64,000 bases of DNA from a virus (taxonomy: Duplodnaviria > Caudoviricetes), in the IMG/VR virus record IMGVR_UViG_3300037478_000223, positions 1 to 64,000 of that record; one strand, written 5' to 3'. The notes under the pieces are model-generated. The model had not been told where the DNA came from and searched no databases. It saw nothing but the letters and a program-made list of their open reading frames with translations. Below, in pieces: positions 2,779-51,718 of the stretch. The position numbers and the translations under genes were made by a program. Each line of letters begins with the position of its first letter. The first letter of the stretch is position 1.

Positions 2779-2867
2779 CGCCTATGCCCAGACGGCCGCA
2801 CACGCCCCATACACGCCCGCAAACCGCGCCCGAGCACTCCGGGGCGCCGGATGCTCTGATAGGCCGT

Positions 2868-3569
2868 ATGCGCGCCTACCAGCACCCCACGACGCGGAAC
2901 TTCGGAGACGTCCTCCCGCTACCCATCCTCGAACACGTCACCGGGAAACGACCCCGCCGGGCCGACCGCTCCGAAACCGGGAAAGTGGTCTCTGTCGGCT
3001 CGGTCCTCCCCGTCATGCGCCCCGGAGACTGGGTGTGGGGCACCGGCACACAGACCGACCGCCGCTACAGCGCCCGCGAAACTACCTTCCTCGCCGTACG
3101 CGGCCCCCTCACCCGGGCAGCCATCGACGGAGCACACGTGCCAGAGATCTACGGGGACCCCGCCCTACTCCTACCGGACATGTACACCCCCGACGTCACC
3201 CGGCGCCACAGCGTCGGCATCCTCGCCCACTACATGGACCACTCCGCCGCCGCCGCCAAACACCCCGACGCACTCAACATATGGATGAAGGGCCCGTGGC
3301 GGACCATCATCCGCAAGGCGCTCTCGTGTGAACGGATCATCGCAACCAGCCTGCACGGGATCGTGATCGCAGATGCCTACAACATCCCCGTCACCTGGCA
3401 CGGCTCCTACTCCGGCAAGATCGCCTCAACGAGCATGAAGTTCCAAGACTACTTTCTTGGCACGCGTGGGGTCACGGTCCGTCCAGGGCCCGTGCCACGC
3501 CTGCCCCGGGATGAGTACCGGATGCTGTGCGCGCGGCTCTACGCGGCAGCCAAGCGGCTTCCGGCATGA
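2868..3569 (+). CDS. polysaccharide pyruvyl transferase family (ExoV-like)
   Basis: NFGD, GSV, VWGTG, AVRGPLT, GDPALL, SLHGIVIADAY, KFQDY motifs. Confidence 0.85.
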   Translation: MRAYQHPTTRNFGDVLPLPILEHVTGKRPRRADRSETGKVVSVGSVLPVMRPGDWVWGTGTQTDRRYSARETTFLAVRGPLTRAAIDGAHVPEIYGDPALLLPDMYTPDVTRRHSVGILAHYMDHSAAAAKHPDALNIWMKGPWRTIIRKALSCERIIATSLHGIVIADAYNIPVTWHGSYSGKIASTSMKFQDYFLGTRGVTVRPGPVPRLPRDEYRMLCARLYAAAKRLPA

Positions 3570-5515: not shown

Positions 5516-7567
5516 ATGGGACTGTTCTCGACTGCTGATGAGCCGCTGACAGCCGCTGTAGTGCGGTCCTACCGGAAGATTCCGGACACGATCAAGTACA
5601 ACGTCACCGCCTCGGACATGTGGCACCTCTACCACTGTGTCCCCGAGATCTACTACGTCGTCAACCAGCAAGCACGCAACGTCGGCCGCCTGGACTGGCG
5701 CGTCAAGATCGATGGCTCAGTCGTTGACGACGAAAACTCCGACTCCGCCGACATCCTCCGTAAGGTCTTCGGCCGCGACCTACGCGGCCTCATCGTCAAA
5801 GCCGCCATTCACCTGCAAGTCGTCGGCGCGTTCTACCTCGTGCGGCACGGCAACATCTGGTCAGTCATGAACTGCCCAGCCCTGCACGACCACAAGCAAC
5901 TCATGGAATCCGCTGACGTGATAGTCCACGTCATCATCGAAAACCCGTGCAACCCCGACTTCGCTGAGTCGCCACTGGAAGCCGTCGCAGACATCGCCCG
6001 GGAACTCATCCTTGCCCGCGCACAGTCCCGAGTCCTGACCCGCTCCCGCACAGCGCAGACCAAGACCATGCTCTACCCCCTCGAAGCGGTCAAGGATCAC
6101 GAGAAGTTCGAAGCCGACTGGCAAGAGATGGCCATGGAACCGGCCGTTGACGAGAAGTCAGCCGTACTCGCGGGCAACCTGGTAGGCGTCCCCAAGGAAT
6201 ACATCCAGGACTTCACGCCGGTGGACATGTCCAAGCCCTCCGACGAGAAACTTCCCGACCGTATCGACCGGCTGATCAAGCAGCTCGCCCTCGGACTGGA
6301 CGCGCCGCCGTCCATCCTGCTTGGGTTCGAAGAAGCCTCCCAGTGGAACGCTCACGTCATCCAGGAAGACAACTGGCTGGGTCACATCGAACCGATGGCC
6401 TTCCCGATCGGTCAGGCGCTCGCGGAAGGCGTGTCCTACCAGGTCTCAGACGCACTCGACCAGGAAGGCGACGAGACCGGCAACCGAGACCGGCAACGCG
6501 ACCGGGACCGGATCGAAGTCACCCCGGACCCCTCTCCGCTGTTGAAGCGTCGCCCGGACCTGCAATCCATCGTGCGCGTATGGGAACTGGGTGGCGTGTC
6601 CGATGAGTGGATGCGGGAGCAGATCGGCGCGCCCGAGTCCGCTGCCGGGCCCGGCCTGACCGTTCAGCCCAGTGAGCGCGCCACCGTCACCGTGAGCGAG
6701 TCCACGAGCAGCAGTGTGGAGGACTCCACCAGCGGCGAGCCGGACCGCATCCAGTCCGAACAGCGGCAACGACAGATCGAACGCGCCCCCGAGCGAGGCA
6801 TCGCAGCAGCCACACACACCGGCCTGGATCCCGCGCGGCTAGCGGACATCGACGACCAGGCATACACCAGCTTCGCGGACCTGCTGTTGGACATCGCAGA
6901 GCGCATCCTGGAGAAACTGGGCGCGAAGGTCCGCACCATCGCACAGGGGCGGGAGATGAACCTTCCCCGCAACGTCTCGAACATCGAACTCGGGACCAGG
7001 TTCCCCGGGTCGATCGCCAACGGGGAAGCGATCATCAACCAGGTGATCACTGATGCCCTGGTCAAGGTGGACCGGATCATCACCCGTGCGGAGGGTCGTA
7101 TCCGCGCGATGGGGATCAACGTGCCCGACAACCCGTCAGACCCGCGCCGTGAAGCAGCACGTGAGACCTTCGCGGACTCCGTACGGGCCGTCGTGGAATC
7201 CATCCGTGCGGGCGGCTCCGGTGAAGGGCTCGCAGCCCAGTACGGGCGCCGTGTCGCGACCGTTGCCGGGGGAGGTGACCCAGAGGATTTTCAAGGGGCC
7301 GACAGCGGGATAGCGCTGTCGGCCCAAACCAAGCGGCAGGCGGAACGTGACCTTGAAATCCAATTCAGTGGGCAGATGCGATGGCTCCACCTGTACCAGG
7401 GCCCACACCCTCACCCCGTACACCTATCCCTGAAAGACGCGCTGATCGATGAGCTACCCGTCTGGACGGGCGAGTTCGAAGCCTTCCCCGGTGACCACCC
7501 GGGGTGCATGTGCGTCACGGCACCAGCAGAAACCACGCCAGTACGAACAGGATGGAGCGCAGCATGA
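5516..7567 (+). CDS. portal protein with C-terminal MuF/minor-head-like domain
   Basis: 683 aa; LALGLDAPPSILLG..A..WNA portal-like segment; C-terminal W.H...H..H...PGDHPGCMC MuF-type motif. Confidence 0.8.
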   Translation: MGLFSTADEPLTAAVVRSYRKIPDTIKYNVTASDMWHLYHCVPEIYYVVNQQARNVGRLDWRVKIDGSVVDDENSDSADILRKVFGRDLRGLIVKAAIHLQVVGAFYLVRHGNIWSVMNCPALHDHKQLMESADVIVHVIIENPCNPDFAESPLEAVADIARELILARAQSRVLTRSRTAQTKTMLYPLEAVKDHEKFEADWQEMAMEPAVDEKSAVLAGNLVGVPKEYIQDFTPVDMSKPSDEKLPDRIDRLIKQLALGLDAPPSILLGFEEASQWNAHVIQEDNWLGHIEPMAFPIGQALAEGVSYQVSDALDQEGDETGNRDRQRDRDRIEVTPDPSPLLKRRPDLQSIVRVWELGGVSDEWMREQIGAPESAAGPGLTVQPSERATVTVSESTSSSVEDSTSGEPDRIQSEQRQRQIERAPERGIAAATHTGLDPARLADIDDQAYTSFADLLLDIAERILEKLGAKVRTIAQGREMNLPRNVSNIELGTRFPGSIANGEAIINQVITDALVKVDRIITRAEGRIRAMGINVPDNPSDPRREAARETFADSVRAVVESIRAGGSGEGLAAQYGRRVATVAGGGDPEDFQGADSGIALSAQTKRQAERDLEIQFSGQMRWLHLYQGPHPHPVHLSLKDALIDELPVWTGEFEAFPGDHPGCMCVTAPAETTPVRTGWSAA

Positions 7568-8010
7568 ACGACGCACTGACCAGGTTCCGACGCTCACTGA
7601 TGCGTCAGACCATCATGGAACCGCCCGTCACAGCGGCAGTCACCGGCAGCATCGACCTGCCGGTATCGGAGCGGGACCACGAATGGGACGGCACCGCCGC
7701 CAAACGGCGTGTGCTCGAAGCGTGCGGCGACGATGCTGAGTGCATCTCCCGCGCGTTCCTCTACCAGGACACCGACGCGGACCCCGCCACTCAGGCGGCA
7801 TGGAAGCTCGGGTTCGCGGACATCATCGATGGAACACTGACCATCGTTCCGCTTGGGGTCGCCGCGACCGCCGGGGGTCGCGGCGTGGACGTGGCAGACG
7901 TCCCCGAGGATGAGAAGGAGAGCATCCGCGCGCGGATCACCCGCCTCTACGACCACATCCGGGACACCTACGATGACTGGCCCGAATCACCGTTCCAGGG
8001 GGACGAATGA
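7564..8010 (+). CDS. head-morphogenesis-associated protein (domain often fused to capsid protease in B-like phages)
   Basis: LPVSERDHEWDG..AKRRV...RAFLY...WKLGFADIIDG.L.IVP motif; overlaps portal stop. Confidence 0.55.
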   Translation: MNDALTRFRRSLMRQTIMEPPVTAAVTGSIDLPVSERDHEWDGTAAKRRVLEACGDDAECISRAFLYQDTDADPATQAAWKLGFADIIDGTLTIVPLGVAATAGGRGVDVADVPEDEKESIRARITRLYDHIRDTYDDWPESPFQGDE

Positions 8011-8771
8011 CAGCCCTACAGCGCCTTCGGATCGCGAAGGTGCACCAGGACATGCGCGCCACGCAACGGGCCCAGGAAGCGGCTCAGAACGCGTCTGCGC
8101 CCGTCGTTGACGGCAAGCCGTGCGACACGTGCCCACCCGATGACGCGGACACGCCAGTCAGCTTGCAATCCCCGGCCGCGACCGTCGTGCCTGACGAACC
8201 GATCACGGCATCCGCTACCGCCGTTCGGGACGCGATCGTGTGGCCAGCCGACCACTTCGAGAAGTGGCGCAGCGCCACGTACGAGCCCCTGACCGTGCAT
8301 CCAGACGGGCAGATCACCGGACACCTCGCCGGGGACGGCTGTTTCCAGAACGGGGACGCGTCGGTGTGCGTGAAGTACAAGCGCGACGTTGACCCGACCT
8401 TGGCGCGGTTCAACACGTGGACCACGACCCTGGACGACGGGAACGTGATCCGCACTGGCGCGCTCACGGCCGGTGGCCCTCACGCGCCGGTCGTGGCAGC
8501 GACGAAACAGGGATGGAAGGATGCTGATATCCGCCGGTTCCATGAGGACACGTCAACCGTGTTCGCTCGTGTCGTCGCGTGGGAAGACGAGAAGGGGCGT
8601 CTTGCGGTTGCTGGCAGCATCATCCCGGAACTCGATCCCATGTTCGTCCGGCAAGTCGCTGGCGCTCCCGTGTCGATCGAAAAGATGCCCATGCATGAAA
8701 CTGGGTGGCGTAACACCCTGGTCGGCGCGCACATGGTTGTCACTCCGGCGCTGCCCGTGGTGACGGGGTGA
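8007..8771 (+). CDS. capsid maturation protease (cluster-B-like)
   Basis: PLTVHPDGQITGHLA...TGALTAGGPHA...ARVVAWED.KG.LAVAG motifs; position after portal. Confidence 0.7.
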   Translation: MTALQRLRIAKVHQDMRATQRAQEAAQNASAPVVDGKPCDTCPPDDADTPVSLQSPAATVVPDEPITASATAVRDAIVWPADHFEKWRSATYEPLTVHPDGQITGHLAGDGCFQNGDASVCVKYKRDVDPTLARFNTWTTTLDDGNVIRTGALTAGGPHAPVVAATKQGWKDADIRRFHEDTSTVFARVVAWEDEKGRLAVAGSIIPELDPMFVRQVAGAPVSIEKMPMHETGWRNTLVGAHMVVTPALPVVTG

Positions 8772-9688
8772 GGATCGCGGCATTCGTTCAGGGGTACGCG
8801 CACGGGCGGGGACGCGCGACCACGAGCCTGGAGCAGATCTCAGCCCTCGGGGATCGCGGCCACGACGTGACCGTGTTCCTGCCCAGCCTACGGAGCTTCA
8901 CGTTCACACCTGGGGTGACGGTCCTGCCTATCGGGGAGTTCGACCCTGCCGCTCGGTACGACGTCGCTGTGTTCAACTCTGGCTTGTCGGTCCCCATGAC
9001 CAAGGCCGTGAACTCCCTGAACGTGCCGAAGCTGATGTGTCAGCACTCATACAACACGAGCGACGTCGGATTGAAGGTCGCTGACACGGTCTGGTATCCG
9101 TCCCGAGCGTGTGCGAACGCGGACACGCGCACCGGCTACCGCAAGTTCCACTGCGCGCCCCCGATCAACCCGACGCTCTACCGCGTGCGGCTCGGGAACG
9201 CGATCGGCGCTGTCTCGACCGCGCGAGCCAAGGGCGGTGACCTCGTGGCAGAGATCGCCCGCAGGATGCCGAAGCGTCGGTTCGTCGTGGCGCGGGATCC
9301 GGCAGGCAACGGGACCCACTTGTTCGCTGGCCTGACGAACGTGGAGGTCATCCCGTTCGGGGACCCGGCGAAGTTCTACGGCCGCTGCAAGATCCTGCTG
9401 TTCCCGTCCGTCACGGAGTCCTACGGCCGCGCACCGGTGGAGGCTGCCGTGTCCGGCATCCCCACCATCGCGACCCCACTCAAGGCCGTGAAAGAGGCGT
9501 TGGGGGGCCGGGGGACGTTCGTCCCGAGGCATCAGGTCAGCTTGTGGGTTCGGGAGGCAGAAAGGATGATGCGCCATCCGATCGTGTGGGCAGCATCCTC
9601 GTCACAGGCGCGGAAGCTTGGCGAGTCACTGGACTATGCGGCAGTGCGGGCCCGGTGGGTGTCCGAGGTGGAGCGGCTGAGGAGATAG
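8768..9688 (+). CDS. GT-B (GT4-like) glycosyltransferase
   Basis: KILLFPS..ESYGRAPVEA..SGIPTIAT motif; GTGA-coupled to protease. Confidence 0.85.
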   Translation: MRIAAFVQGYAHGRGRATTSLEQISALGDRGHDVTVFLPSLRSFTFTPGVTVLPIGEFDPAARYDVAVFNSGLSVPMTKAVNSLNVPKLMCQHSYNTSDVGLKVADTVWYPSRACANADTRTGYRKFHCAPPINPTLYRVRLGNAIGAVSTARAKGGDLVAEIARRMPKRRFVVARDPAGNGTHLFAGLTNVEVIPFGDPAKFYGRCKILLFPSVTESYGRAPVEAAVSGIPTIATPLKAVKEALGGRGTFVPRHQVSLWVREAERMMRHPIVWAASSSQARKLGESLDYAAVRARWVSEVERLRR

Positions 9689-9812
9689 CGACGTAACGGC
9701 GCCCGTGGCATGTGCCGCATGACGTCGGCAACGCCCAGATGGTTCGAGCGGCGTAGTGCACGACCGGGTGTAGTCGGATACCGCTGCCCTGGCATGTCCG
9801 GCATCGTGTCAC
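9537..9812 (-). CDS. small DnaJ-type zinc-finger protein (CRTCQGSG...CGTCHG)
   Basis: AGGAGG RBS + GTG; two CxxCxG motifs; 3' part overlaps glycosyltransferase end. Confidence 0.55.
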   Translation of the reverse strand: MTRCRTCQGSGIRLHPVVHYAARTIWALPTSCGTCHGRRYVAISSAAPPRTPTGPALPHSPVTRQASAPVTRMLPTRSDGASSFLPPEPTS

Positions 9813-10023
9813 GGTTCCCCGGTCCTCCTGATGTTCAGGGTGAAGATGAGTCTTAACCTGACTCTACGGAGTTCTTCGCGTACCTCCATGCGGAAACAGA
9901 TGCAGGGCCGACAGACACACGATGCCCGGTCATGCGTCGCCGGATCGTTCTCCACCCAGAAGCGTTCAGTCATGCCGCCGTTGTTCCCCCTCGAACCACG
10001 CCCGTTGCCCCTGGCGCCGCATG

Positions 10024-10071
10024 TGCCGCGCCATCTGCCGCGCCATCTGATGCGCCATCTGATGCGCCAGG
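10024..10071. repeat. four 12-bp tandem repeats (core GCGCCATC)
   Basis: TGCCGCGCCATC x2, TGATGCGCCATC, TGATGCGCCAGG. Confidence 0.9.
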
Positions 10072-10277
10072 ATCATTCCACTATCTTCCTCGTGGAATCG
10101 GTATCCGCACCCGACATATGCACAACATACGTGTTGCGCCCGGTGCGGGATGAAAATAGAATGGGAGGCAACCCATCCACGACAGGAACGAGTCATGCCC
10201 AAGATCTACGTATGCCGCCGGTGCGGAAACGCCACCACCAACCCGTCCCGGTACTGCCCAGCCTGCCGGTATCGCAA

Positions 10278-10317
10278 GGGGGCCCTTGCACCATCCCACA
10301 ATGGTGCAAGGGCCCCC
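10278..10317. terminator. 17-bp-stem hairpin, likely terminator at end of traB
   Basis: GGGGGCCCTTGCACCAT / ATGGTGCAAGGGCCCCC, followed by CTTTT. Confidence 0.75.
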
Positions 10318-10340
10318 CTTTTCCCCCTCTGCCACACAGA

Positions 10341-12533
10341 CTACCGGCCACGTGCCCGATTCTGCGCGTCAACCACATCGGCGCGCTTGACGCCCTTGGT
10401 CGGTGCGACGTCACTACTGATCCGCACCGAACCCACCTTCACCCCGGCCTCACGGAACAACTGGCCCACGTCCCGCGCGCCACACTCACCCCACGAGCCT
10501 GGGTCATGCGCTCGCAGCAGCGAAGCCAGCTCGCCCAGCCCGGCAGACGGGCGAACCACAGTCCCGTCCAGCGGCCACACGTCCACCACCGCGTCCAGGA
10601 ACACACCAGACGTCCCGTCATCGTCGTCCGCCGGGACATCTCCGGCCGCCATCCCGGACAGCGTGCCAGCCTCACGCCGCATGGCCTCGATTTCCTTCAC
10701 CATCGCGTGCACGCTCGGCAAGTCCAGGTAGGACAGCTTCGTCTTGACCATCGAACCACCAGCGATCCCGATGAACGCGACACCCGGCGTGTCGATGTCC
10801 ACCGCACGGTAGCCCCGGCCGTGAGCATCGGACCCGAGCGCGATATTCGCGTCAGCGATGCTGTTCTGCGCGTGCCCGACGCGGTGCTTGCACCGGTCCA
10901 GGATCCGCGCCGGAACAGTGCCTTCCTTCGCGCCCTGGAACACGAGCCGGACCGTGATTCCGACCGAGCGAGCCGTCTGCACGACGTCCAACAAGCTGTC
11001 TTCGGCCTCGTTCGCGATCGGGGACAGGAACACACGCGGGACCTCGTCCAGCAGCACGAACACCGGCCGCATGTCCTGGCGATCCGCCAACGCGTCGGTC
11101 AGCTTCGAGTCCGGGCATTCCTCGAACGGAAGCGTCTCCAACACCTTGTTCCGCCGTGCGACCTCGGACCGGAGCCACTTCAACGTCCCCATGAACGCCT
11201 CCAGGTCCGCCGCGTCGCACCCGTTGCGCAAGGTGTGCGCGATCGGCGCGAACGCCTTGTAGTCCAGCCCACCCTTGAAGTTGTGGATGGCCAAGAGCGT
11301 TCGCGGGTCCATCGCGGCACCCAGGATCAGCAGCCGCGCGGTAGCCGACTTCCCGGAACCGACGTCGCCAGCAATCCCGCCGTTCGTCTCGAACAACGGC
11401 ACGATGACATCCCGACCCCGCGCGTCCACGCCGACCGGAACACCATCGAAGTACGAGCGCGAGCGCACCTGAGCCCACTTCCACGCCGGAGACGGCATGC
11501 GGGACAGCAGCCCGTCAGCAACGAACAGCTCGAACGCACCCGGCGACACGTCCGGCAACGGCTCCACCACCAGGCACTCAGCAGGCTTGCCCATCGCGGA
11601 CGCGAACCGGCCGTGACGCTTGATCAACTCAGCCGTCTCCAGTCCAGGAGCCATCCTCACCGTGAGCAACACGCCACCCTGCACGCGCTCACCAGACATC
11701 ACGCGCGACTTGGCACCGTGCAGGGCACCGAACCCGGACATGGCCAACGCGTTCTCCACGGTGGTGACCAACGCCTGATCCTCGTGAGACGACGGAGCCA
11801 GTTCCTTGGGATCCTTCGACCTGAACAGGTGAAACTTCCCCTGCACCGGATCCCCCTCCGGCATCTGCGCAGTCACGACCACCGGCCGCACCGACTCCAC
11901 AGCACCGGGACCGTCCGGCACGGGCGCTCGAAGATCTTCCGGCACCTCGGCACGTAACGGCCACGTGTTACGGCGCTCGCGGACGCCCGCGACGATGAAC
12001 ACGGTGACGGTTCCTGCGATCACGGCTGCCGGGACGGTCCCCCACTTGCCGTGTTCGGACCACATCCACGCCGCGAAGAACGGGGAGGCGACCACAGCCA
12101 GGCGCAGCAGCTTCCCGCGTCCCTTCCCGGCCGCGACCCAGTTCTTGGCTCGTACGGCGCTGACCTTCACCCCGAGGGCGAAGTACAGCGGCGCGCGCAC
12201 GATGTGGAATGCGGCGATACGGCCTGTGTATGCGGCGCGTGCCTTGAAGCCGCCACGGACACGCGGGATCGGGACCGGGCGCACGACGGGCGCGGGCTGC
12301 GGCGCGACAACTGCCCCGGCGGGAACCGTCTGCGCTGTGGCCGGTTCGACGACGGGCCCGTTGTCCGGCTCCGCGTCGCCGCTCGCTGTGTCGTTGCTGT
12401 CGAAGGTCTCTTCGATCCGGTCAAGCGAATCATCGGCTTCGAGCATGTCCAAGAGCCGTTCGTTCACCTCGTCAGCTTCGTAGCCGCTGAGCCGTTCGTG
12501 GTCGCCGTCGTCGTAGTGTGCATTGTCGGTCAT
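10341..12533 (-). CDS. traB: FtsK/SpoIIIE-family DNA translocase, actinomycete plasmid TraB-like
   Basis: N-terminal hydrophobic segments; Walker A GDVGSGKS; Walker B VFVLLDE; ARSVGI..RL..Q motif; C-terminal possible wHTH region; start placed at ATG after GGAAGG RBS. Confidence 0.8.
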   Translation of the reverse strand: MTDNAHYDDGDHERLSGYEADEVNERLLDMLEADDSLDRIEETFDSNDTASGDAEPDNGPVVEPATAQTVPAGAVVAPQPAPVVRPVPIPRVRGGFKARAAYTGRIAAFHIVRAPLYFALGVKVSAVRAKNWVAAGKGRGKLLRLAVVASPFFAAWMWSEHGKWGTVPAAVIAGTVTVFIVAGVRERRNTWPLRAEVPEDLRAPVPDGPGAVESVRPVVVTAQMPEGDPVQGKFHLFRSKDPKELAPSSHEDQALVTTVENALAMSGFGALHGAKSRVMSGERVQGGVLLTVRMAPGLETAELIKRHGRFASAMGKPAECLVVEPLPDVSPGAFELFVADGLLSRMPSPAWKWAQVRSRSYFDGVPVGVDARGRDVIVPLFETNGGIAGDVGSGKSATARLLILGAAMDPRTLLAIHNFKGGLDYKAFAPIAHTLRNGCDAADLEAFMGTLKWLRSEVARRNKVLETLPFEECPDSKLTDALADRQDMRPVFVLLDEVPRVFLSPIANEAEDSLLDVVQTARSVGITVRLVFQGAKEGTVPARILDRCKHRVGHAQNSIADANIALGSDAHGRGYRAVDIDTPGVAFIGIAGGSMVKTKLSYLDLPSVHAMVKEIEAMRREAGTLSGMAAGDVPADDDDGTSGVFLDAVVDVWPLDGTVVRPSAGLGELASLLRAHDPGSWGECGARDVGQLFREAGVKVGSVRISSDVAPTKGVKRADVVDAQNRARGR

Positions 12534-12630
12534 GGCGGGGGTTCCTTCCGGTGGGGGATGTGCGTCGGTCCCGCCGCGTGAGTGGTACGGCGGGACCGAC
12601 TGGAGGGGCAACAGGGGGTAGGCGCGCGTG

Positions 12631-13035
12631 TCAGGCGAACCCGAATGCGCCGATCGTGGAGTTGATCGCCAGCGGCAGCCACGACGTGATCAGCGGAGTT
12701 GTACCGACGATCATGCACGCGATCACCAGGGGCACAAGCTCACCCTTCTTGATGGTCTTGTCCCACAGGATGACGGCCAGGATCGCGGTCGCGATGGCCA
12801 GGACACCCACCGTGTAGGTCGCGCCTCCAGCCGTGGACGGGAACCCGAGCATGCCAGTGAACGCGTTGATGATGCCGTTGAGCATCGGGGCAAGGAACCC
12901 CTGAATCCTGGGGGCCGATCCGACGATCATCGACACGATGATCAGGATGTAGAGCGCCGCGCCGCTGGTCTTGTTGTGCCTGATCATGAAGATGAGCATG
13001 CCGACAGCGAACATGGCGACAAATGCGTCATACAT
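12631..13035 (-). CDS. multi-TM membrane protein, Tra/Spd-like
   Basis: About 4 hydrophobic helices; directly upstream of traB. Confidence 0.65.
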   Translation of the reverse strand: MYDAFVAMFAVGMLIFMIRHNKTSGAALYILIIVSMIVGSAPRIQGFLAPMLNGIINAFTGMLGFPSTAGGATYTVGVLAIATAILAVILWDKTIKKGELVPLVIACMIVGTTPLITSWLPLAINSTIGAFGFA

Positions 13036-13172
13036 GGGTGGTTGGTGCCTCTCTTGTTGGCTGTGAGGCAGCTAGGATGTGTCTGCCTCGTTGGTTGGGG
13101 TTGGGCTGTGACTGCTGTCTCCCGTCTTACTGGAGGGCGGGAGGCAGCGCGCTCGCGGTGCAGGGGGCTGGG

Positions 13173-13445
13173 TCAGTCCTCGCCGTGGAACTGCTTGTGG
13201 ATCTTCCGGGAGGCGATCACGCGCCGGACTTGCTGGGGTGTGAGTCCGAACATCTTGCCAATCTTCCCGGTCGTGAGGCCACCCTTCGAGGGGGTAGTTT
13301 CGTCACGGTCCTGGGTGTAGATCCGGTAGATCTCGGCATCACGTTCGGCCAGTGCCCGGCTGGACTCTTCACGCGCTTGGGTCAGCTTGACGGCCAGGGG
13401 GTGCAGCGCGGGTTCCTGCGGTTCCTCCTTCGAGTTTCGGGTCAT
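13173..13445 (-). CDS. small HTH transcriptional regulator (Kor-like candidate repressor)
   Basis: GLTTGKIGKMFGLTPQQVRRVIA helix-turn-helix; AGAAAGG RBS. Confidence 0.7.
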   Translation of the reverse strand: MTRNSKEEPQEPALHPLAVKLTQAREESSRALAERDAEIYRIYTQDRDETTPSKGGLTTGKIGKMFGLTPQQVRRVIASRKIHKQFHGED

Positions 13446-13471
13446 GGTTGCCTTTCTGGTGGACGAATATT

Positions 13472-13548
13472 GCAACGCCAATGTTGCCACACCACACACC
13501 CTTAATGCAACTAGAACGTTGCGCGCGCGTGGGTGCTTCCCGTACAGT
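13472..13548. promoter_or_regulatory. divergent control region with two perfect GCAAC-N6-GTTGC operators (13472-13487, 13507-13522)
   Basis: + promoter TTGCGC-N18-TACAGT; - promoter TTGCAT-N18-CAACAT bracketed by both operators. Confidence 0.8.
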
Positions 13549-13593
13549 CAGGGACCGACACCACACTCACCACGCATGGAAGGAACCACCACC

Positions 13594-14570
13594 ATGGGCA
13601 AGCTCATCGCCGCCATCATCCTTGGCGCTTTCCTGGGCGTCTTCGTCATGCTCGCCCTCGGGTACGACAAGACCCTTGCCGCCTCGTTCGCCCAGAACGC
13701 CCGCACTGTCTCGCACATCGTCGGCACCATGAACGACGCCACTGCCACGGGCGGGGGCGAGTGATGTTCGGCGGAGACGACCGCGTATCACGCACCCTGC
13801 GCCGCTTCATGCTCTGGGGCGTGCTGTCCCTGATCGCCTACCTGATCTTCTCCACCGAGGTCACAACGGTTCCCGGCAGCTTCGGGGACGTCCTGGAGAG
13901 CACATGGGTCCCGGTGCTGATCACCCTGACCATCGGGTTCATCCTGTTCGCCCCGGACAAGTGGGCCAAGGCCGTCAAGGGGTTCTTCGGCCTGGTCATC
14001 CTGTCCATCGTCCTGTACTGGATCCTGTTCTAGCCCATGGCGACGCATAGACGGTGGTGGAACACACCATTCGGAAACGGACCAATCACCGTGGCACTAT
14101 GGTGGCTGGCCTGGACACCACTGTTCGTCGGCGCGTGCGCTTACACGGCCGGACTCCTGGCCTGGTTCCTCGCTCAGCTCGTCGGGTGGGGAATCATCCA
14201 GATACTCACCACCGCACCCGCCACCTAGAGAGGGAACACCATGGACGCCAGCGACTTCGATCCGCGCAACCCCCGCGACGCCCGCGCGTTCGCGGAAGGA
14301 GTCATGGCAGCCCAACGCGATTCCCGGGCCCGGATCGAACAGCAGCAGCACCACACCGAACAGGCCGAAGAAGCCAAGCGGCATCTGGGATGGCTCGTGC
14401 TGTGCGCGATGCTCTTCCTCACTACCGCGTTCAACGCGGAGTCATGGGCGATCGGCCTCGCGTCGTTCGTGCTCGGACTCGGCATCGCGGGTGCTGTCGT
14501 CGCCAAGATCGTGTCGTGGCACAGGCACGCGACCGAAGCCAGGAACTACGAACCCGAGGCCGGAAAGTGA
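13594..14570 (+). CDS. four small membrane proteins (13594-13764, 13764-14033, 14037-14228, 14241-14570), Spd-like or holin-like
   Basis: Each has 1-2 hydrophobic helices; tightly packed, divergent from HTH/traB. Confidence 0.6.
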
Positions 14571-15332
14571 TCATCGACAAGATCGCACGCAAGATCACGA
14601 GCAAGCACGTGGAATCCACGTCCCGAACCGCCTACCACGGCACCGTGTACCGGATCAGGACCGTGGTGTGGCGCCATTGGGGCGGTCTGGCATGGTCATA
14701 CACCATCGAACGCCCCAACCTGTCCAACCCGCTGGCACCGCGCATCGTTGATGCATCTAGGATTCACCTTTCCTACTACCAGGCCAAGCATGAGGCAGTG
14801 ATTGAGGTAGGTGCCATCATGGATGACATCTACGCCACCATGAGCGCCATCTACGATGGTCATCCTCAGTACACGCACAGCCTCAACGACAGGGGAAGAT
14901 AGGGACATGGAACTCGAAGTGACGATGTGCGGCTACCTGGACGACGTCGTTCCCATCGACGTGCAGTACAGGCGCAACATCCTGCGCCGCTACAGCTACC
15001 TCCTGTACTGGGTGGAGCCCATCGACCGGTACGGCTACCAGACCTCCGCGTCGCAGGCGCGCGCGCGCGTCGAACCTCGTCGCTTCTGGACCATGCAGGC
15101 AGCAGAACGCCACGCCCGCGAAGCCGCCCAGACGATCCGTGAGCGCGTGGCCCGGGAAGCGGACTACTACGAACTTCCGGCGGCTTCGTGAACCGGCGTA
15201 CCCGTACCGTGTTCGTCGCCATCCTGGCCGTCACTCTCGCAATCGCGTGGGTGACGGCCGGTTTCATGTTCACCCACTGGCACAACGACCCGCTTCCCAT
15301 TGAAACGCCCGGGTCCATGTCACGATGAGGGC

Positions 15333-16019
15333 ATGGCCCTTTCCCAGCAGGTCACACCAACCTACGTGCTTGATCTCTACATGCGTTGGGCCGACCTCAA
15401 CGGCTACCACGTGGGCGAACACCCGGACTACGGCGGAGTAACACCCGGCGTGCACGCGCTCGCCTCATGGCACAAGGACGGCCTTGCAACGGACATCAAC
15501 TGGGGCGTCGGCAACCCACCGGCAGAGCGAGATAAGCTGATCACCGCAGCCATCGTGGCCGAATCGATGGGTCTAGCGCTCACCTATGCCAGATACGGGA
15601 CCGCCGGGTCAGCATCGAATCACCGCAACCATCTCCACGTAGACGTAGGTGAATGGTCGAACTACGGGAACGGCAACGTACGCCGCAAGCCTGGAAGCCT
15701 GGTCCCCTACCGGCTCCAGACAGCAGTGTTCCGCTTCGTGCGCCAGCGAGACAACCTCTGGGGCGACCAGACAGGCAAGCGGCTCCACGCCGTACGCATG
15801 GCTTCCAGGATGCACGGGACCAAGTTCCCCTACGGGATCCCGTTTACGCGCCGCGTCATCAGCGCCCGGAGCGGCAAGAACTGGGATCACTCAGCCCGTG
15901 AGGAACATGACGCTACCGTTCTCGTGATCCAGGAAGCCCTCAACGTCACCGAAGACGCCGTATGGGGCACCGAGACTGATAGCGCCTACCTGGAGGCGCA
16001 AGGCCGCTACCGGCGGTAG
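15333..16019 (+). CDS. endolysin, peptidase M15/LAS-type with C-terminal PG-binding segment
   Basis: SWHKDGLATD and HRNHLHVD Zn motifs; IQEALNV..DAVWG.ET PG-binding-like tail. Confidence 0.75.
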   Translation: MALSQQVTPTYVLDLYMRWADLNGYHVGEHPDYGGVTPGVHALASWHKDGLATDINWGVGNPPAERDKLITAAIVAESMGLALTYARYGTAGSASNHRNHLHVDVGEWSNYGNGNVRRKPGSLVPYRLQTAVFRFVRQRDNLWGDQTGKRLHAVRMASRMHGTKFPYGIPFTRRVISARSGKNWDHSAREEHDATVLVIQEALNVTEDAVWGTETDSAYLEAQGRYRR

Positions 16020-23656: not shown

Positions 23657-25740
23657 CCCGAGATCACCGCGTTCTCCCACTCGATCTGGACGGAACCAGT
23701 GTCTGCCGGGTCGCCTGTAGTGAACGACACTTCATGTACGCCCGGTGACAGCGGGAACGTGTAATCACCCAAGAGGTGCTGCGTCTCGTCGCTTATCCCT
23801 GACGATGCTCGCCCCCACCTGGTATCCACGGTCACCCGTTCGAGGGCGCCGACATCTTCGTCATACGTGAACGAGAACGGGCCGTATGAAACGGTGATCG
23901 GAGCCGTCAGCGGCCCGTCAAGGCGGAACACCGGGAACACACACAGATCACCGACGACTTCGATCGTCGCCGGTTCGCCCGCTGTCGCGCCCTCGTTGAT
24001 CCACAGTTGTGCCAGGTCAAGCGTCTGGTTCGCCAGAGCGATTCCGCTCCATCGCAGCACCGGCTGCATGAACGCGGCCATCGCCGGTGCCGCGAACGTT
24101 TGCGTGAACCGCGTCCAATCCTCGGTCGCGTCCTGGTTAACGCCCGTCGAGGTGGACAGCAAAACGCCTCCCGCGTCGCGCCACACCGCATCGACCCTGG
24201 TCGAGATCGTGCCATCGGGTATCTGACGGGCCCACCACGCGAAAGCGTAATCGTTCCCGGCCGTGACCGGAATCCCGTCCGTACCAGACCCGGCCGCCGC
24301 GCCAGACATCGGAGATGTCGTGTTCGGCGTCGTGACGTTGATCGACAGATACGATCCGCCGTCCGGCGCACCCGACGAGATCGTGCTCTGTGTCGCTACC
24401 GCGTCCTGCGTGTCGAACGTGACATCGGTGAGCCGGTAGTCCTGCGCGATGTTGCCACCGGCCGCCGCACCAGCCGACATGCTCTGCGTATGCGTCGCGT
24501 GCCAGTTCCCGGCGCCTGTGTCCGCGAGTTGAAGGCGCGCATCCTGCGCGTCGAAGCGGAGCGTCACCCTCGCCGCCCCACGGTTCGAACGCATCCACTC
24601 CACCTGCGCCACACGCGGGCGCCCGCGCACCAGGTACGGCCCGAGGTAGGTTTTCTCTTCCTCGGTCGCATCCGCCTGGTGGCAGTCGGTGAAAAGCACC
24701 AGAATCGCCTGAGTGCACGAGCGTGACCACTCGGTTGTCAGTCGTTTGACCTTCTGCCGTGCGCTCATGGTCGCTGCAACGAACGGTTGCAGGAATGCGG
24801 GGGGAACGACCGACCACGTGTTTCCTGATCCGTCTACGAACGGTGTGGTGCCGCCAGGTTGGTCAAAGTTGGGGTTCGCGACGATGGTGCCGTTGATGCC
24901 AGTTCGGATCTCGGCGGAGAAAACGCGACCGGTTACAAGGTCCGCGGTCCCGTCGCTGTGACCGCCGATCTCTACCTGCGCGGGGCCCGCGAAGATCGAC
25001 GTCACGGCACCGGGAACCATAGCCCCCAGTTGGGTCCAGGTCATACCGTCTGTGCTGGTGTAGAAAGTGACTTCCCGTGAACCACCACCATTATCAACGT
25101 CCAATGTCGCGCGTATCCACAGTGGCTCACCATCTGCGATACTCAGCGCAACCGTAGACGCCACTGCGATGACGGCTGTTCCGTCATCGGACCAGACCAG
25201 GCGAATTTCACCAGCGGGGTTGATCTGAATCAGGTAAGACCTGTCTCCGACATCACCCCACTTGGTGACAGGCGACTGGAACATGTCCGGTGTCCAGTCG
25301 TCCATGGCGAGGTAGACGCGAATGTCGATATCGCCGGTTATTTGCAGTGGTGCCGAATTCGGTGTGAAAGCATGGCCGGGGGCTACTCCGTTGAGGACTA
25401 GCGCGCCATCAACCTGGGGCGTCGGCAAGCATCCCGGGCATGCGTCGTTCTTCACGATCACTTGGAAAGTCAACTGCCGGGGTTCGTAGTAATCCCCGAA
25501 TTGTTCCACGCCGTCGCGCTGCGCGAACGCCACATCCCCCGACCGCACGGACGGCACCCCGAGCCCATCCGGGGGCAGCAGCAGGCATCCGAGCGGCGTG
25601 GTGGGTAGGAACCCGTCTACCTCGCTGCCGCCCGAGAGGCTGATTCCCTGTGCCTGGGATGACACGATCTCGCCGTTGACGAAGTTGTCTTTGTTGTCCT
25701 GCCACATCACAGCGCCCCACGCGCCACTGTTCCGGCTCAT
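23653..25740 (-). CDS. distal tail (Dit-like) protein with LamG-like and CBM-like insertions
   Basis: Follows tape measure; QITGDIDIRV...DDW LamG-like segment; TAGNDY.F..W...WTRFTQTF.AP CBM-like segment. Confidence 0.7.
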   Translation of the reverse strand: MSRNSGAWGAVMWQDNKDNFVNGEIVSSQAQGISLSGGSEVDGFLPTTPLGCLLLPPDGLGVPSVRSGDVAFAQRDGVEQFGDYYEPRQLTFQVIVKNDACPGCLPTPQVDGALVLNGVAPGHAFTPNSAPLQITGDIDIRVYLAMDDWTPDMFQSPVTKWGDVGDRSYLIQINPAGEIRLVWSDDGTAVIAVASTVALSIADGEPLWIRATLDVDNGGGSREVTFYTSTDGMTWTQLGAMVPGAVTSIFAGPAQVEIGGHSDGTADLVTGRVFSAEIRTGINGTIVANPNFDQPGGTTPFVDGSGNTWSVVPPAFLQPFVAATMSARQKVKRLTTEWSRSCTQAILVLFTDCHQADATEEEKTYLGPYLVRGRPRVAQVEWMRSNRGAARVTLRFDAQDARLQLADTGAGNWHATHTQSMSAGAAAGGNIAQDYRLTDVTFDTQDAVATQSTISSGAPDGGSYLSINVTTPNTTSPMSGAAAGSGTDGIPVTAGNDYAFAWWARQIPDGTISTRVDAVWRDAGGVLLSTSTGVNQDATEDWTRFTQTFAAPAMAAFMQPVLRWSGIALANQTLDLAQLWINEGATAGEPATIEVVGDLCVFPVFRLDGPLTAPITVSYGPFSFTYDEDVGALERVTVDTRWGRASSGISDETQHLLGDYTFPLSPGVHEVSFTTGDPADTGSVQIEWENAVISG

Positions 25741-28310
25741 GCTGTCGGCACCCCCCCGATGACTTCACGCCGTGCCTGTGTCGCGAACCGGATATTCCAT
25801 GTCATCTCATCAAGTCGTCCGCCTGACGTCGTCGGGCCGGTGAACACCTGCGTCAGGTTCACCCTGTCAGCCCTATCACGTGCCCCTGTGGCGCCCGTTC
25901 CGCTCTGGAACGGCGTGGAGGCGAGTGCTGACGGGGCAAGGGGCGCTAGGGCCCGTTCCATGGCTCTGGCTGGCAGGTTGATGTTCTGCTGGATCCCGTC
26001 AGCGATCATCTGGGCGATGGCTTCACCACTGTTCTCCGGTGACCCGATTCCGGACAGCGGTCCGACGCGCGCGGGCGAGAACGGGAGGTAGCCCCGGATC
26101 GTGCTCGCCACGTTGGACATGGTGGAGGCGATCGTTCCGATGAGGGAGCTGATCCCGTTGATCAGCCCGAGCATGACGTTGCGGCCAGCGTTGAACAGCA
26201 AGCTGCCCAGGTTCCCGAGCGCTCCGACGATCCGGCCCGGGATGGAGGCGACGAAGCGGATTACCCGGTTGAGTCCGTTGCTCGTGGCCGTGAACACGCG
26301 CGAGACGCCTGACTGGAAGGCCGATCGTGCTCGGGACCACAAGGTTCGTGCGGCTGCCACGATGCCGGTTCCGAGGGCGACGAAGCGGTTTCGGACGTTG
26401 GCCACGAACCCGACGACGACGTTGATCGCGTCAACCACGCCTTGACGGAAGCGGATGCGCAAGAGCCCCCAGAACTGCTCTACGGTGAGACCGGCCTGGG
26501 CTAGTCCCGTGCGGAATGGGTTCGTGATGTTTCTGATGAGGGCCGCTACAAGCCCAGCGATGACCTGACCTACTCCGGCGACGATCTGTTGAATACCGGC
26601 CCACGCCGTTTCCCAATCGCCGGTGAAGACGCCTGTCATGAACGTGATCAGGCCGCCCAGGACGTTGAACAGGCCGCCGAGGATATCGACCACGGCCGTG
26701 ATGGCGGACACGAGCTGCGCGCCGAATAGGTCAAGCAGTAGCCCCGCGAGGGGTGCGATGAGTGGGAGGAATTCAGCGATGGCGGGTGCGAGGTTCGTTG
26801 CGAACAGGTCGCCTATCTGCGCGATTGCTGGACCGAGAGCAGTCACAAGAGTGGTCACCAGGGGCGCGAGGGCTTGCACGAGACCGACGATGAGCTGAGC
26901 CACCAGGCCGACGACTGGTGCCAGTCCGGTCAGCGCGGTCCCGATTGCCTCACCGAGCACGATCGCCACGGGCAACAGCGCGTCGCGGAGTGCGTTGATC
27001 TGGGGTAGAAGCTGTCCGATGACAGCGAAGAGTCCACCGAACACGGGGCCGATCACGGCGCCGAGTTCTGAGATGGTCTGTCCGGTCTGGGAGATGAGGT
27101 CGAAGAACGAAGCAAGTCCAGCTTGCGCGCCAGCGGTCTGCAAGAACTCGGCGAACTGCCCCGTCAGGTCCCGGAAGGTGGACAACAGGCCAGCGCCCAC
27201 ATCCGCACCGGCGCCGAACACGGATACCAGGATGGATCCAACGTTTCCCACGATGCCGAGTAGGACACCGAGAACGCTGTTGGCTTGATTGACGAACTCG
27301 GCAAGCTGACCCGATTGGTTGATCCCCTCAGCCCACTGCGCGAACGACTCCCCCACCCGTGTGATGGATTCCGCGAGGGAAGTTGCCGGGCCCGTAGAAC
27401 CCTCGAACAGACTCAAGATTCCCTGACCGAACGCGCCAATTCCGGGTAGCAGGGCGGCGAGGGTCCTGTTGAGCCCAGCCATGATCGATTCGATCTGCTG
27501 TGCCCCACCACCGGACGTGATGAAGTTCGCGAACCCGCGCGCGGCCTCGTTGAGTACCTGAGCGGTCCCCGTCAGCCCTGACTCAAGGCCAGGAAGGATC
27601 GCCGTGGAGATGTCACGCATGATCCCTGCCACGCCTCGGAAGAGGTCTTGTTGTACAGCCTGCTGCATGTTGGACCATGCCGGGGCAAGATCCTGAACAG
27701 CAGTCACGACGCGCTGTGCGGCAGGTGCGAGGCCATCCATGGCGGCGGTGAGTGCCTCTTGCGTGGCCTCGGACACCTCGCCGGTTCGCGCAAGTTCCTC
27801 CTGAGCCTTGGACTGTGCTTCCATCGCGTCAGCAAGACCTATGGACCCCACCCGTACGGCGAGTGCGGCTTGCCCGAGGGACGCGAAGGCGCCACCGGCG
27901 GACAGAGCCGCCCCGGATGCTTGCCCCACGGCACCAGCCACGGCGACTGCTCCGGCAACGACGCCTGCCAAGGCAGTCGGTATGGGCGCGATGGATCCGA
28001 TCAGAGCGGCGAAGCCGCCCCCGAGTTTCGCGATTGCGGATCCCTGTTCGGTGACTGCGCTGCCGATGGTGGATCCGAACCCGCGCCCGAACCCGCGCGT
28101 GTAGCTTCGGCCGGATTCCTCGCCTGCGCGCTCTGCTTCGCCGGTGCCCGCGCCGGTGAGTCCTGCTCCGATGGAGTCGGCTAGTTCATCTCCGACACGT
28201 CGGCCGACTCCAGACACGTCGATCCCGGCGAACCCGTTGCTTAGTGCGTCACGGATTGCTGCGGCGGGGTCGCCTTTGATGTCGAGGTTGACCGGTACGC
28301 GGATTGCCAT
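25737..28310 (-). CDS. tape measure protein
   Basis: 857 aa Ala/Gly-rich amphipathic repeats; C-terminal YLPFSPA..GPLSG motif; follows chaperones. Confidence 0.9.
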   Translation of the reverse strand: MAIRVPVNLDIKGDPAAAIRDALSNGFAGIDVSGVGRRVGDELADSIGAGLTGAGTGEAERAGEESGRSYTRGFGRGFGSTIGSAVTEQGSAIAKLGGGFAALIGSIAPIPTALAGVVAGAVAVAGAVGQASGAALSAGGAFASLGQAALAVRVGSIGLADAMEAQSKAQEELARTGEVSEATQEALTAAMDGLAPAAQRVVTAVQDLAPAWSNMQQAVQQDLFRGVAGIMRDISTAILPGLESGLTGTAQVLNEAARGFANFITSGGGAQQIESIMAGLNRTLAALLPGIGAFGQGILSLFEGSTGPATSLAESITRVGESFAQWAEGINQSGQLAEFVNQANSVLGVLLGIVGNVGSILVSVFGAGADVGAGLLSTFRDLTGQFAEFLQTAGAQAGLASFFDLISQTGQTISELGAVIGPVFGGLFAVIGQLLPQINALRDALLPVAIVLGEAIGTALTGLAPVVGLVAQLIVGLVQALAPLVTTLVTALGPAIAQIGDLFATNLAPAIAEFLPLIAPLAGLLLDLFGAQLVSAITAVVDILGGLFNVLGGLITFMTGVFTGDWETAWAGIQQIVAGVGQVIAGLVAALIRNITNPFRTGLAQAGLTVEQFWGLLRIRFRQGVVDAINVVVGFVANVRNRFVALGTGIVAAARTLWSRARSAFQSGVSRVFTATSNGLNRVIRFVASIPGRIVGALGNLGSLLFNAGRNVMLGLINGISSLIGTIASTMSNVASTIRGYLPFSPARVGPLSGIGSPENSGEAIAQMIADGIQQNINLPARAMERALAPLAPSALASTPFQSGTGATGARDRADRVNLTQVFTGPTTSGGRLDEMTWNIRFATQARREVIGGVPTA

Positions 28311-49050: not shown

Positions 49051-49247
49051 GTTCCACCTCTCTGCGTCGAGAGTGGTAGCAGCAACCCAGCGTGAGCATG
49101 TAGACTTCTCACGTTCATCAGGTTTGGAGTGCTCTACCACTCGAATCTAGGCCGGACCCCGTAGCGGGGGTCCGGCCTGAACTTTTTCCTGACGGTCAGC
49201 GTACATGCCGCAGCAGGGTTCGTCGCGCGACGCGTGGAGTGTGTCAG

Positions 49248-51673: not shown

Positions 51674-51718
51674 GCATGCATCGGGAACATCAACCGCACT
51701 CACGGAAGGAACCACGCC

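Follow-up and report, generated by a model that had tools for sequence, protein, structure and literature searches.

The window analysed here, 64,000 nucleotides long, is the first 64 kb of the 73,146-bp IMG/VR virus record IMGVR_UViG_3300037478_000223, and the system in question is a three-gene cassette on its minus strand. As delimited by the analysis of GC content at third codon positions (GC3) and by translation, the cassette encodes a small helix-turn-helix (HTH)-like protein of 90 aa (first gene, 13173-13445), a 134-aa protein with four transmembrane (TM) helices predicted from hydropathy (second gene, 12631-13035), and a TraB-like, membrane-anchored FtsK-type ATPase of 730 aa (10341-12533). 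The HTH-like protein belongs to no Pfam family and carries a C-terminal HTH-like motif, L(T/S)P(E/Q/A)QVRRI; the 4-TM protein contains a duplicated LG(A/S)(T/A)(S/P) motif and has no match in Pfam, PHROG or PADLOC. On one side of the cassette are the portal/glycosyltransferase genes of a tailed phage, and on the other is its lysis region. The first-pass annotation had described at this site an FtsK/SpoIIIE ATPase with N-terminal TM segments, a multi-TM protein, a small HTH protein and four divergent membrane genes, all of which are present, and had read them as the transfer module of a conjugative phage-plasmid. It was right in placing the block between portal and endolysin-like phage genes; the neighbour that it assigned to a protease operon, the open reading frame (ORF) just upstream of the block (8768-9688), encodes instead a GT1 glycosyltransferase.

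The ATPase was characterized by Pfam, PHROG and BLASTP searches, an AlphaFold2 (AF2) model, Foldseek and a phylogenetic tree. It matched Pfam FtsK_SpoIIIE (PF01580, 5e-9) and phrog_1358 (1e-16). Its Walker A motif is GDVGSGKS (residues 389-396), and both G-x-G-K-[ST] and D-E are invariant in the alignments. An acidic N-terminus is followed by three long hydrophobic helices (about residues 94-190), a linker, a pre-motor region (250-340), a RecA-like motor (345-630) and a winged helix (642-727). In the N-terminal region, which is conserved in the family, hydropathy detected a segment at 164-185 and two more hydrophobic helices, and the AF2 model placed helices at 94-134, 139-161 and 166-190. The whole model (predicted local distance difference test, pLDDT, 81.8) comprises N-terminal helices, linker, pre-motor, motor and a compact C-terminal domain. 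TraB proteins are hexameric membrane-anchored FtsK-type pumps that move unprocessed double-stranded DNA (dsDNA) through a pore in a membrane or septum; their substrate is selected by a winged helix at the C-terminus.

BLASTP aligned the protein with pSVH1 TraB (7e-21, 26% identity), collinearly over 387 residues from the pre-motor region into the C-terminal domain. Matches to plasmid TraBs ranged overall from 1e-19 to 1e-34, with Pseudonocardia plasmid proteins at 1e-31 to 1e-34, against 1e-4 for E. coli FtsK. Thirty small actinomycete plasmids matched the ATPase, pSVH1 and pSG5, the archetypal TraB plasmids, among them. An exhaustive profile search returned 365 representatives below 1e-30, most of them 650-780 aa long and aligned end to end. 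The crown family takes in pPaSha2-like and Pseudonocardia plasmid proteins and at least 591 chromosomal stretches in mycelial actinomycetes (Amycolatopsis, Streptomyces, Micromonospora, Nonomuraea and others), which are the classical hosts of TraB and of AICEs (integrative and conjugative elements of actinomycetes). Among 50,697 records searched by tblastn, the sole phage match was Streptomyces phage Gilgamesh gp10 (23% identity, 1e-10), and a search of cultured phages with the TraB proteins of pSVH1 and pPaSha2 found nothing.

The C-terminal domain (residues 636-730), modelled alone, reached a pLDDT of 89, and all its structural neighbours were winged HTH domains; the best was Rex (Z 6.7, root mean square deviation 3.0 over 73 residues), with no single Z reaching 8. 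With the C-terminus of a TraB-like protein from a P. broussonetiae plasmid it shares 38% identity (E 2e-5). The modelled fold and this similarity support the homology of the predicted winged helix to the clt/TRS-recognition domain of TraB.

Among solved structures in the PDB, the best sequence match of the ATPase was YukB/EssC (6e-9), ahead of EccC (3e-6) and FtsK (9e-5). Together with a weak match to NCBIfam T7SS_EccC_a and the position of the cassette next to the lysis region, this would suit a protein-secretion ATPase of the EccC/EssC kind, exporting phage proteins such as lysis factors with the small membrane ORFs as a channel. We consider this very improbable: Foldseek ranked FtsK motors first, dsDNA-bound states included (4e-17, about 406 columns), then the conjugation coupling protein TcpA and only then EccC/EssC/HerA, EccC is an outgroup in the tree described below, and the protein has a single ATPase domain followed by a winged helix of DNA-binding type, with no WXG100-like substrates recognised. 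The best-supported reading of the sequence comparisons is that the ATPase is of the actinomycete TraB type rather than a generic phage FtsK-like gene, as had been proposed at first.

For the phylogeny, a bootstrapped IQ-TREE of the motor domain was computed with outgroups from two actinomycete chromosomes, namely true FtsK, EccC domains and other paralogues. The phage clade (100/100) nested in the TraB-like assemblage, within a 66-row TraB-like clade (94/83) in which pSVH1 and pSG5 TraB branch earlier, and its sisters were the proteins P0078, P0047 and P0061 (94/93). For two of these three, the gene neighbourhood was examined and proved to be a canonical conjugation layout: P0078 lies beside a GntR gene, in the order DUF2637, 137-aa ORF and ATPase, and P0047 with ParA and, further on, WhiB, DUF2637, an 81-aa ORF and the ATPase. 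True FtsK proteins were monophyletic (100/100) and were joined by Gilgamesh gp10 (95/89), and EccC was the outgroup. A side result of this tree is that the FtsK-like genes of actinophages have at least two separate origins, as Gilgamesh gp10 groups with true FtsK and not with TraB.

We then considered the distribution of the cassette. A search of 5.8 billion proteins yielded 13 full-length relatives of the ATPase (41-71% identity), IMG/VR added 12 close loci, and in all the cassette is kept in about 25 related phage contigs. The relatives' contigs share the portal (48-81%), TerL (51-61%), the major capsid protein (MCP; 62-65%) and glycosylation genes. An HTH protein with the L(T/S)P(E/Q/A)QVRRI motif lies upstream of the ATPase in every relative inspected (L002, L003, L005, L010, L011, L017 and L021), and a 4-TM protein of 121-140 aa directly precedes the ATPase in L002, L003, L005, L010 and L017. 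Three of the relatives are complete genomes of 55.7-56.8 kb with direct terminal repeats, in which neither a tyrosine integrase nor ParA (AAA_31) was found.

The control region of the cassette belongs to a genome-wide system. The palindrome GCAAC-N6-GTTGC occurs in perfect form at 16 sites of the window, where 0.11 would be expected, starting at 379, 875, 1503, 2369, 4449, 4955, 13472, 13507, 16545, 35954, 38209, 42301, 47902, 49248, 51633 and 63548; the last 9 kb of the genome contain two more perfect copies (L001:6281 and L001:8971, the window site 63548 being L001:3548). Two perfect copies (13472-13487 and 13507-13522) lie in the 150-bp control region from which the HTH gene and the operon of small membrane ORFs diverge. 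Apart from this genome, the motif occurs only in the closest relative, L005, whose HTH gene likewise has two sites upstream, in the corresponding position. The placement of these putative operators suggests that one regulator controls many promoters. The cassette is therefore no loose passenger, as had been argued from the shared operator, and its conservation across the lineage agrees. An assembly chimera of a phage and an AICE was likewise rejected, since about 25 related phage contigs carry the cassette among the same neighbours and its control region contains the phage-wide operator. These data show a cassette under the phage's own operator/promoter system, vertically inherited in complete, terminally redundant phages that lack an integrase.

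A distant IMG/VR clade beside pSVH1 TraB was not accepted as a further set of TraB phages, the neighbourhood of its member L024 (IMGVR_UViG_3300006028_000010) being AICE-like. There, on a "viral" contig of 100 kb, genes for a NUDIX hydrolase, a tyrosine integrase and a DnaB-like helicase flank a TraB-like gene; the 11 distant IMG/VR matches could represent AICEs or mixed elements that were entered under viruses.

The genome that carries the cassette is that of a full siphovirus-type tailed phage, with a CheckV completeness estimate of 100%. Its virion set includes TerL (Terminase_6N/6C, genome positions 71627-73135, at the extreme right end), the portal (5516-7567), a portal/MuF/protease-like ORF (8007-8771), the tape measure (25737-28310), the head-tail adaptor, major tail protein and MCP (33820-35598), a minor tail protein and an endolysin-like ORF (15300-16019). 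The closest cultured phages are remote, with TerL 34-36% identical to that of Microbacterium phages and MCP 28-31% identical to that of Gordonia and Arthrobacter phages. The source is thus an uncultured actinophage lineage, whose host can be placed, from these remote cultured relatives, only as "actinobacterium".

A 43-bp direct repeat with one A/G mismatch occurs at both genome ends (1-46 and 73101-73146). IMG/VR labels the record linear; the repeat probably reflects a circular or terminally redundant assembly with one single-nucleotide polymorphism or population heterogeneity. As attL/attR of a prophage it was rejected, since it overlaps the TerL stop codon and no integrase is present: the absence of an integrase, first noticed in the window, extends to the whole 73-kb genome, where neither a tyrosine integrase nor a serine recombinase was found. 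ParB_N, AAA_31 and CbiA also had no match in the 73 kb, ParM- and TubZ-type systems not having been searched for.

Replication is served by a lambda-O/DnaD-like initiator (47923-49140; HTH_36 and a DnaD-like/replication initiator O-like region), besides YqaJ, ERF and RusA genes for replication and recombination. The initiator does contain iterons, as first reported: a perfect 24-bp tandem repeat of 3.0 copies lies inside the gene at 48626-48696 (CCCTCCCCACTTACTGGGGAGGCC), and this is a lambda-O-style origin within the gene. More short repeats were observed beside these iterons, at 48490-48624. Initiators of the lambda-O type are common in ordinary phages too.

The replicon has the look of an ordinary phage that is probably virulent, or at least does not integrate, rather than of a conjugative plasmid under stable maintenance. 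For such a phage, we propose that the cassette is a TraB-like dsDNA pump for virion-free spread of phage DNA, an inferred role that we regard as plausible, if somewhat short of probable. During infection, the ATPase would sit in the host membrane or septum and bind phage dsDNA via its C-terminal winged helix, and its hexamer would drive replicating phage genomes into adjacent compartments or into cells in contact with the host; the outcome would be a conjugation-like spread without virions. The 4-TM protein and a conserved 437-aa membrane protein encoded elsewhere in the genome might assist the pump. SpdB2 homologues have been suggested to spread phage DNA (Thoma et al. 2015). A broader form of the proposal is more tentative, and we would call it possible rather than expected: non-integrating tailed actinophages may have turned a TraB-type pump, along with its 4-TM partner and a small regulator, into a core function of infection, pumping genomes directly into neighbouring host compartments or cells and thereby gaining a second, virion-independent route in a lytic or pseudolysogenic cycle, with no plasmid maintenance functions.

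Several points weigh against this proposal. Concerning the phylogeny, an approximately unbiased (AU) test left a grouping of the phage clade with true FtsK and Gilgamesh gp10 unrejected (p 0.371), and a full-length FastTree put the phage clade outside the crown, as its sister. The nesting among plasmid and AICE TraB proteins seen in IQ-TREE, on which the initial TraB assignment can draw, is thus not matched by a rejection of the FtsK grouping. Because of the FastTree placement and the AU test, the ATPase is most safely placed either inside the actinomycete TraB family, as a divergent member, or next to it, as its closest sister.

The same AU result allows an FtsK-adjacent position and, with it, a host-takeover FtsK mimic that manipulates host chromosome segregation, septation or development, or that resolves or segregates phage concatemers. 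Actinophage ftsK genes are usually read as tools of developmental manipulation (PMC10117723), as are phage parB, ssgA and whiB (PMC10117723, PMC13587820), and relatives carry WhiB as well. We nevertheless judge this explanation unlikely. The similarity of the ATPase to true FtsK (1e-4) is far below that to plasmid TraBs, Gilgamesh gp10, which does group with FtsK, comes from a different lineage, and the predicted C-terminal domain is TraB-like; moreover, the genome has no polar or skewed 8-mer resembling the FtsK-orienting polar sequences (KOPS).

Counting against a TraB pump, too, is the scarcity of the other parts of a TraB system. The sole clustered-repeat candidate for clt was GCGCCATC, present three times with 12-bp spacing at 10027-10069. 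It is absent in L005, the closest relative (ATPase 71% identical), and shows no enrichment over the genome as a whole (7 copies where 6.1 are expected), and the 12-nt tandem repeat was therefore rejected as a conserved clt. No conserved clt/TRS repeat and no other clustered or skewed 8-mer were found in the genome; a degenerate or distant clt may exist. The cassette also contains no GntR-type TraR, its 90-aa HTH-like protein having no Pfam family, and no whole-genome GntR search was made; the Kor/TraR regulator initially supposed is thus not supported.

As for Spd proteins, no significant SpdB2/DUF2637 homologue was found. The best candidate is a membrane protein of 381-437 aa (51716-52861, plus strand; the 437-aa protein mentioned above, at 51.5 kb) in which about four TM helices are bundled at the N-terminus and a long hydrophilic tail follows; it co-occurs with the ATPase at a distance of 5-8 kb in L002, L003, L010 and L017 (tblastn 35-40%). 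It had been called a second Spd-like gene at 51.7 kb, a label that its DUF2637 match leaves unproven, reaching 19-22 bits against a Pfam cutoff of 22.8; only one of five lineage homologues matches at all. In hhalign, the comparison with an SpdB2 set gave a probability of 8.6% (E 0.004). The Pfam DUF2637 model misses pSVH1 SpdB2 itself. The 437-aa protein can be called SpdB2-like in predicted size and topology only. Tandem repeats of 9 and 27 nt (ACGTGCAGG-type) at 52506-52596 encode VQ-rich peptide repeats in its hydrophilic tail. The 4-TM protein was also considered as a mini-SpdB2, which found no support, as it has no similarity to SpdB2/DUF2637.

The four small membrane ORFs, which the first-pass annotation took for Spd proteins, show no such similarity either. 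They form one divergent operon on the plus strand (13594-14570) that heads toward the endolysin-like gene, and encode proteins of 56 aa with 1 TM (13594-13764), 89 aa with 3 TM (13764-14033), 63 aa with 2 TM (14037-14228) and 109 aa with 1-2 TM (14241-14570). The third is kept in L005 and in six other loci (L011-L015 and L018), and the fourth in L005. None of the four has a family match in Pfam, PHROG or PADLOC. They could be Spd-like or equally, given their site just upstream of the endolysin, holin-like or lysis proteins.

These results bear on the conjugative phage-plasmid first proposed, a replicon resident as a plasmid in lysogens and moving both as a virion and by TraB mating, with Kor/TraR, clt and Spd functions. 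The TraB-type ATPase, the iteron-containing initiator and the absence of an integrase are all compatible with it, and precedents exist in pZL12, as described in PMC3583192, and in pPaSha2, a circular "plasmid" with phage genes and a DUF2637-TraB cassette. Nonetheless, we hold this reading to be distinctly improbable. No ParA, ParB or integrase was found in this genome, and no ParA in the three complete relatives, whereas pZL12 has ParAB. The ATPase clade has no member, as prophage, plasmid or AICE, in about 186,000 bacterial species genomes, and no PLSDB plasmid above 29% identity among 72,556. The complete relatives bear direct terminal repeats, like free phage genomes, and no recognisable immunity repressor was identified. 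Finally, the clt candidate is not conserved, the regulator is not of GntR type and the homology to Spd is unproven.

The remaining points against a virion-free route concern its biology. A mycelial host is unproven, and the hosts of the nearest cultured phages (Microbacterium, Gordonia and Arthrobacter) have no stable mycelia. Classical conjugation would also give little to a virulent phage; a benefit from cell-to-cell spread of DNA is plausible but speculative.

A function directed at other DNA was considered as well. The ATPase and its 4-TM partner could form a competition or exclusion device acting on incoming or rival DNA (superinfection exclusion, anti-plasmid or anti-AICE activity), for instance by pumping dsDNA out, by blocking it at entry or by interfering with resident TraB systems. 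FtsK/HerA-type ATPases recur in defence, the PHROGs class of the family is "moron, auxiliary metabolic gene and host takeover", and the cassette occupies a non-structural, moron-like spot beside the lysis genes, with divergent transcription. PADLOC returned weak matches to mad8 (5e-6) and SspH (1e-3); these reflect the P-loop in general and lie many orders of magnitude below the TraB matches, and known defence systems were rejected on this basis, the partner proteins matching no defence model. Moreover, the ATPase is kept as core content of the lineage, with a predicted winged helix homologous to that of TraB, and the cassette is under the phage's general operator and not a lysogeny-type promoter. 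We thus see an exclusion device as rather unlikely, and the proposed TraB-like pump for virion-free spread as the explanation to be preferred.

The surroundings of the cassette can now be described. Directly 3' of the ATPase stop codon lies a hairpin with a perfect 17-bp stem (10278-10317), which is kept in L005 and is probably the cassette terminator. Beyond it, on the minus strand, is a separate unit (9537-10137) with its own near-perfect operator at about 10122-10137. It comprises a 36-aa repeat ORF holding the 12-nt tandem repeat (10027-10069), a 54-aa ORF (9809-9973) and a 91-aa CXXC ORF (9537-9812), the "Zn finger". Separated from the ATPase by a strong terminator and served by an operator of their own, the Zn-finger and repeat ORFs constitute a distinct transcription unit; of the block outlined initially, the ATPase/4-TM/HTH cassette stands and these two elements fall outside it. 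The Zn finger itself amounts to a sub-threshold match to DnaJ CXXCXGXG, and the tandem repeat to just 3.6 copies of 12 nt. A further short frame with a CXXC...CXXC (Zn-ribbon-like) pattern was observed at 10195-10300 on the plus strand, antisense and convergent to the 3' end of the ATPase gene; L005 conserves this DNA well, but no stop interrupts the frame before 10731, so that it counts as no more than a candidate gene.

Glycan-modification genes were also observed, interleaved with packaging and portal genes (2784-3569 and 8768-9688 of the window, and L001:10149-10985, that is, genome 70149-70985). The set includes a polysaccharide pyruvyl transferase, the GT1 glycosyltransferase and a Stealth CR2-like protein, and is kept in L002, L003 and L005. 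As it is conserved in the lineage, it suggests glycosylation of the virion or of the host surface.

The usual assumption is that phages spread as virions and in no other way; if the proposed role holds, the boundary between phages and conjugative elements would shift, a bypass of receptor-based resistance would be conceivable, and the modelling of plaque growth and burst size would change for filamentous or clustered actinobacteria. The more conservative reading is still useful, since it separates two unrelated kinds of actinophage "FtsK-like" gene and defines a testable, conserved three-gene cassette. What is new is a separate TraB-like clade that has become fixed, in the form of a three-gene cassette, among apparently non-integrating phages without partition genes, together with the division of actinophage "FtsK-like" genes into an FtsK type (Gilgamesh gp10) and a TraB type (this lineage and pPaSha2). 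The concept of a conjugative plasmid-phage is not new, as pZL12 was described in 2010, and this precedent limits the surprise.

Compared with pSVH1 and pSG5 TraB and with AICE Tra proteins, the ATPase is alike in length (730 against 738-772 aa) and in domain order (membrane region, pre-motor, motor and winged helix), and, as in the plasmid cassettes of the form DUF2637, small ORF and TraB, a multi-TM gene and a small ORF precede the ATPase gene. Unlike plasmid and AICE TraB, it is encoded in a complete tailed-phage genome and forms a long-stemmed clade of its own (23-29% identity), and its cassette is without a GntR TraR, a recognisable adjacent DUF2637/SpdB2 and a conserved 8-bp-repeat clt. 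With chromosomal FtsK/SpoIIIE the protein shares the motor fold, a membrane anchor and a C-terminal winged helix analogous to FtsK-gamma, but it has neither the long linker nor the 4-TM N-domain of FtsK, its similarity to FtsK is low (1e-4), and FtsK forms a separate 100/100 clade. Gilgamesh gp10, an example of the "FtsK-like DNA translocase" of cultured actinophages (phrog_1358), is likewise a phage FtsK-family ATPase whose gene adjoins a membrane protein gene, but groups with chromosomal FtsK (95/89) and not with TraB.

The Streptomyces plasmid-phage pZL12 (phage ZL12; GenBank GQ919031), reportedly the subject of Zhong et al. 2010 (J Bacteriol 192:3747), is also a tailed actinophage with an FtsK/SpoIIIE-like tra gene and adjacent membrane-protein genes (pZL12.71c-73c). 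Its record holds ParAB, an integrase/recombinase and an FtsK-like 725-aa gene, then a 766-aa ORF and a membrane-protein gene. The phage of the window has neither partition nor integration genes; pZL12, by contrast, persists as a circular plasmid. Its Tra protein gave a faint TraB-profile match (1e-6) and no BLAST similarity to the window ATPase. According to PMC3583192, conjugal transfer of pZL12 proceeds through a major tra gene along with two genes next to it.

The Pseudonocardia alni "plasmid" pPaSha2 (CP052773.1, L037) is circular, 41.9 kb long, and encodes a terminase, a portal, an HK97 protease, a major capsid protein, tail genes, a holin and Bet; it also carries a DUF2637-FtsK/TraB cassette and a fragment of an integrase. 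That this record, filed as a plasmid, is the genome of a tailed phage is also a new finding. It differs from the phage studied here in that its ATPase falls in the crown AICE/plasmid TraB group (52% identity to crown representatives, 26% to the window protein), in having a genuine DUF2637 partner as well as an integrase fragment, and in its unrelated phage backbone. Like that phage, it joins a tailed-phage genome to a TraB-type cassette, and it represents a second, independent pairing of the two.

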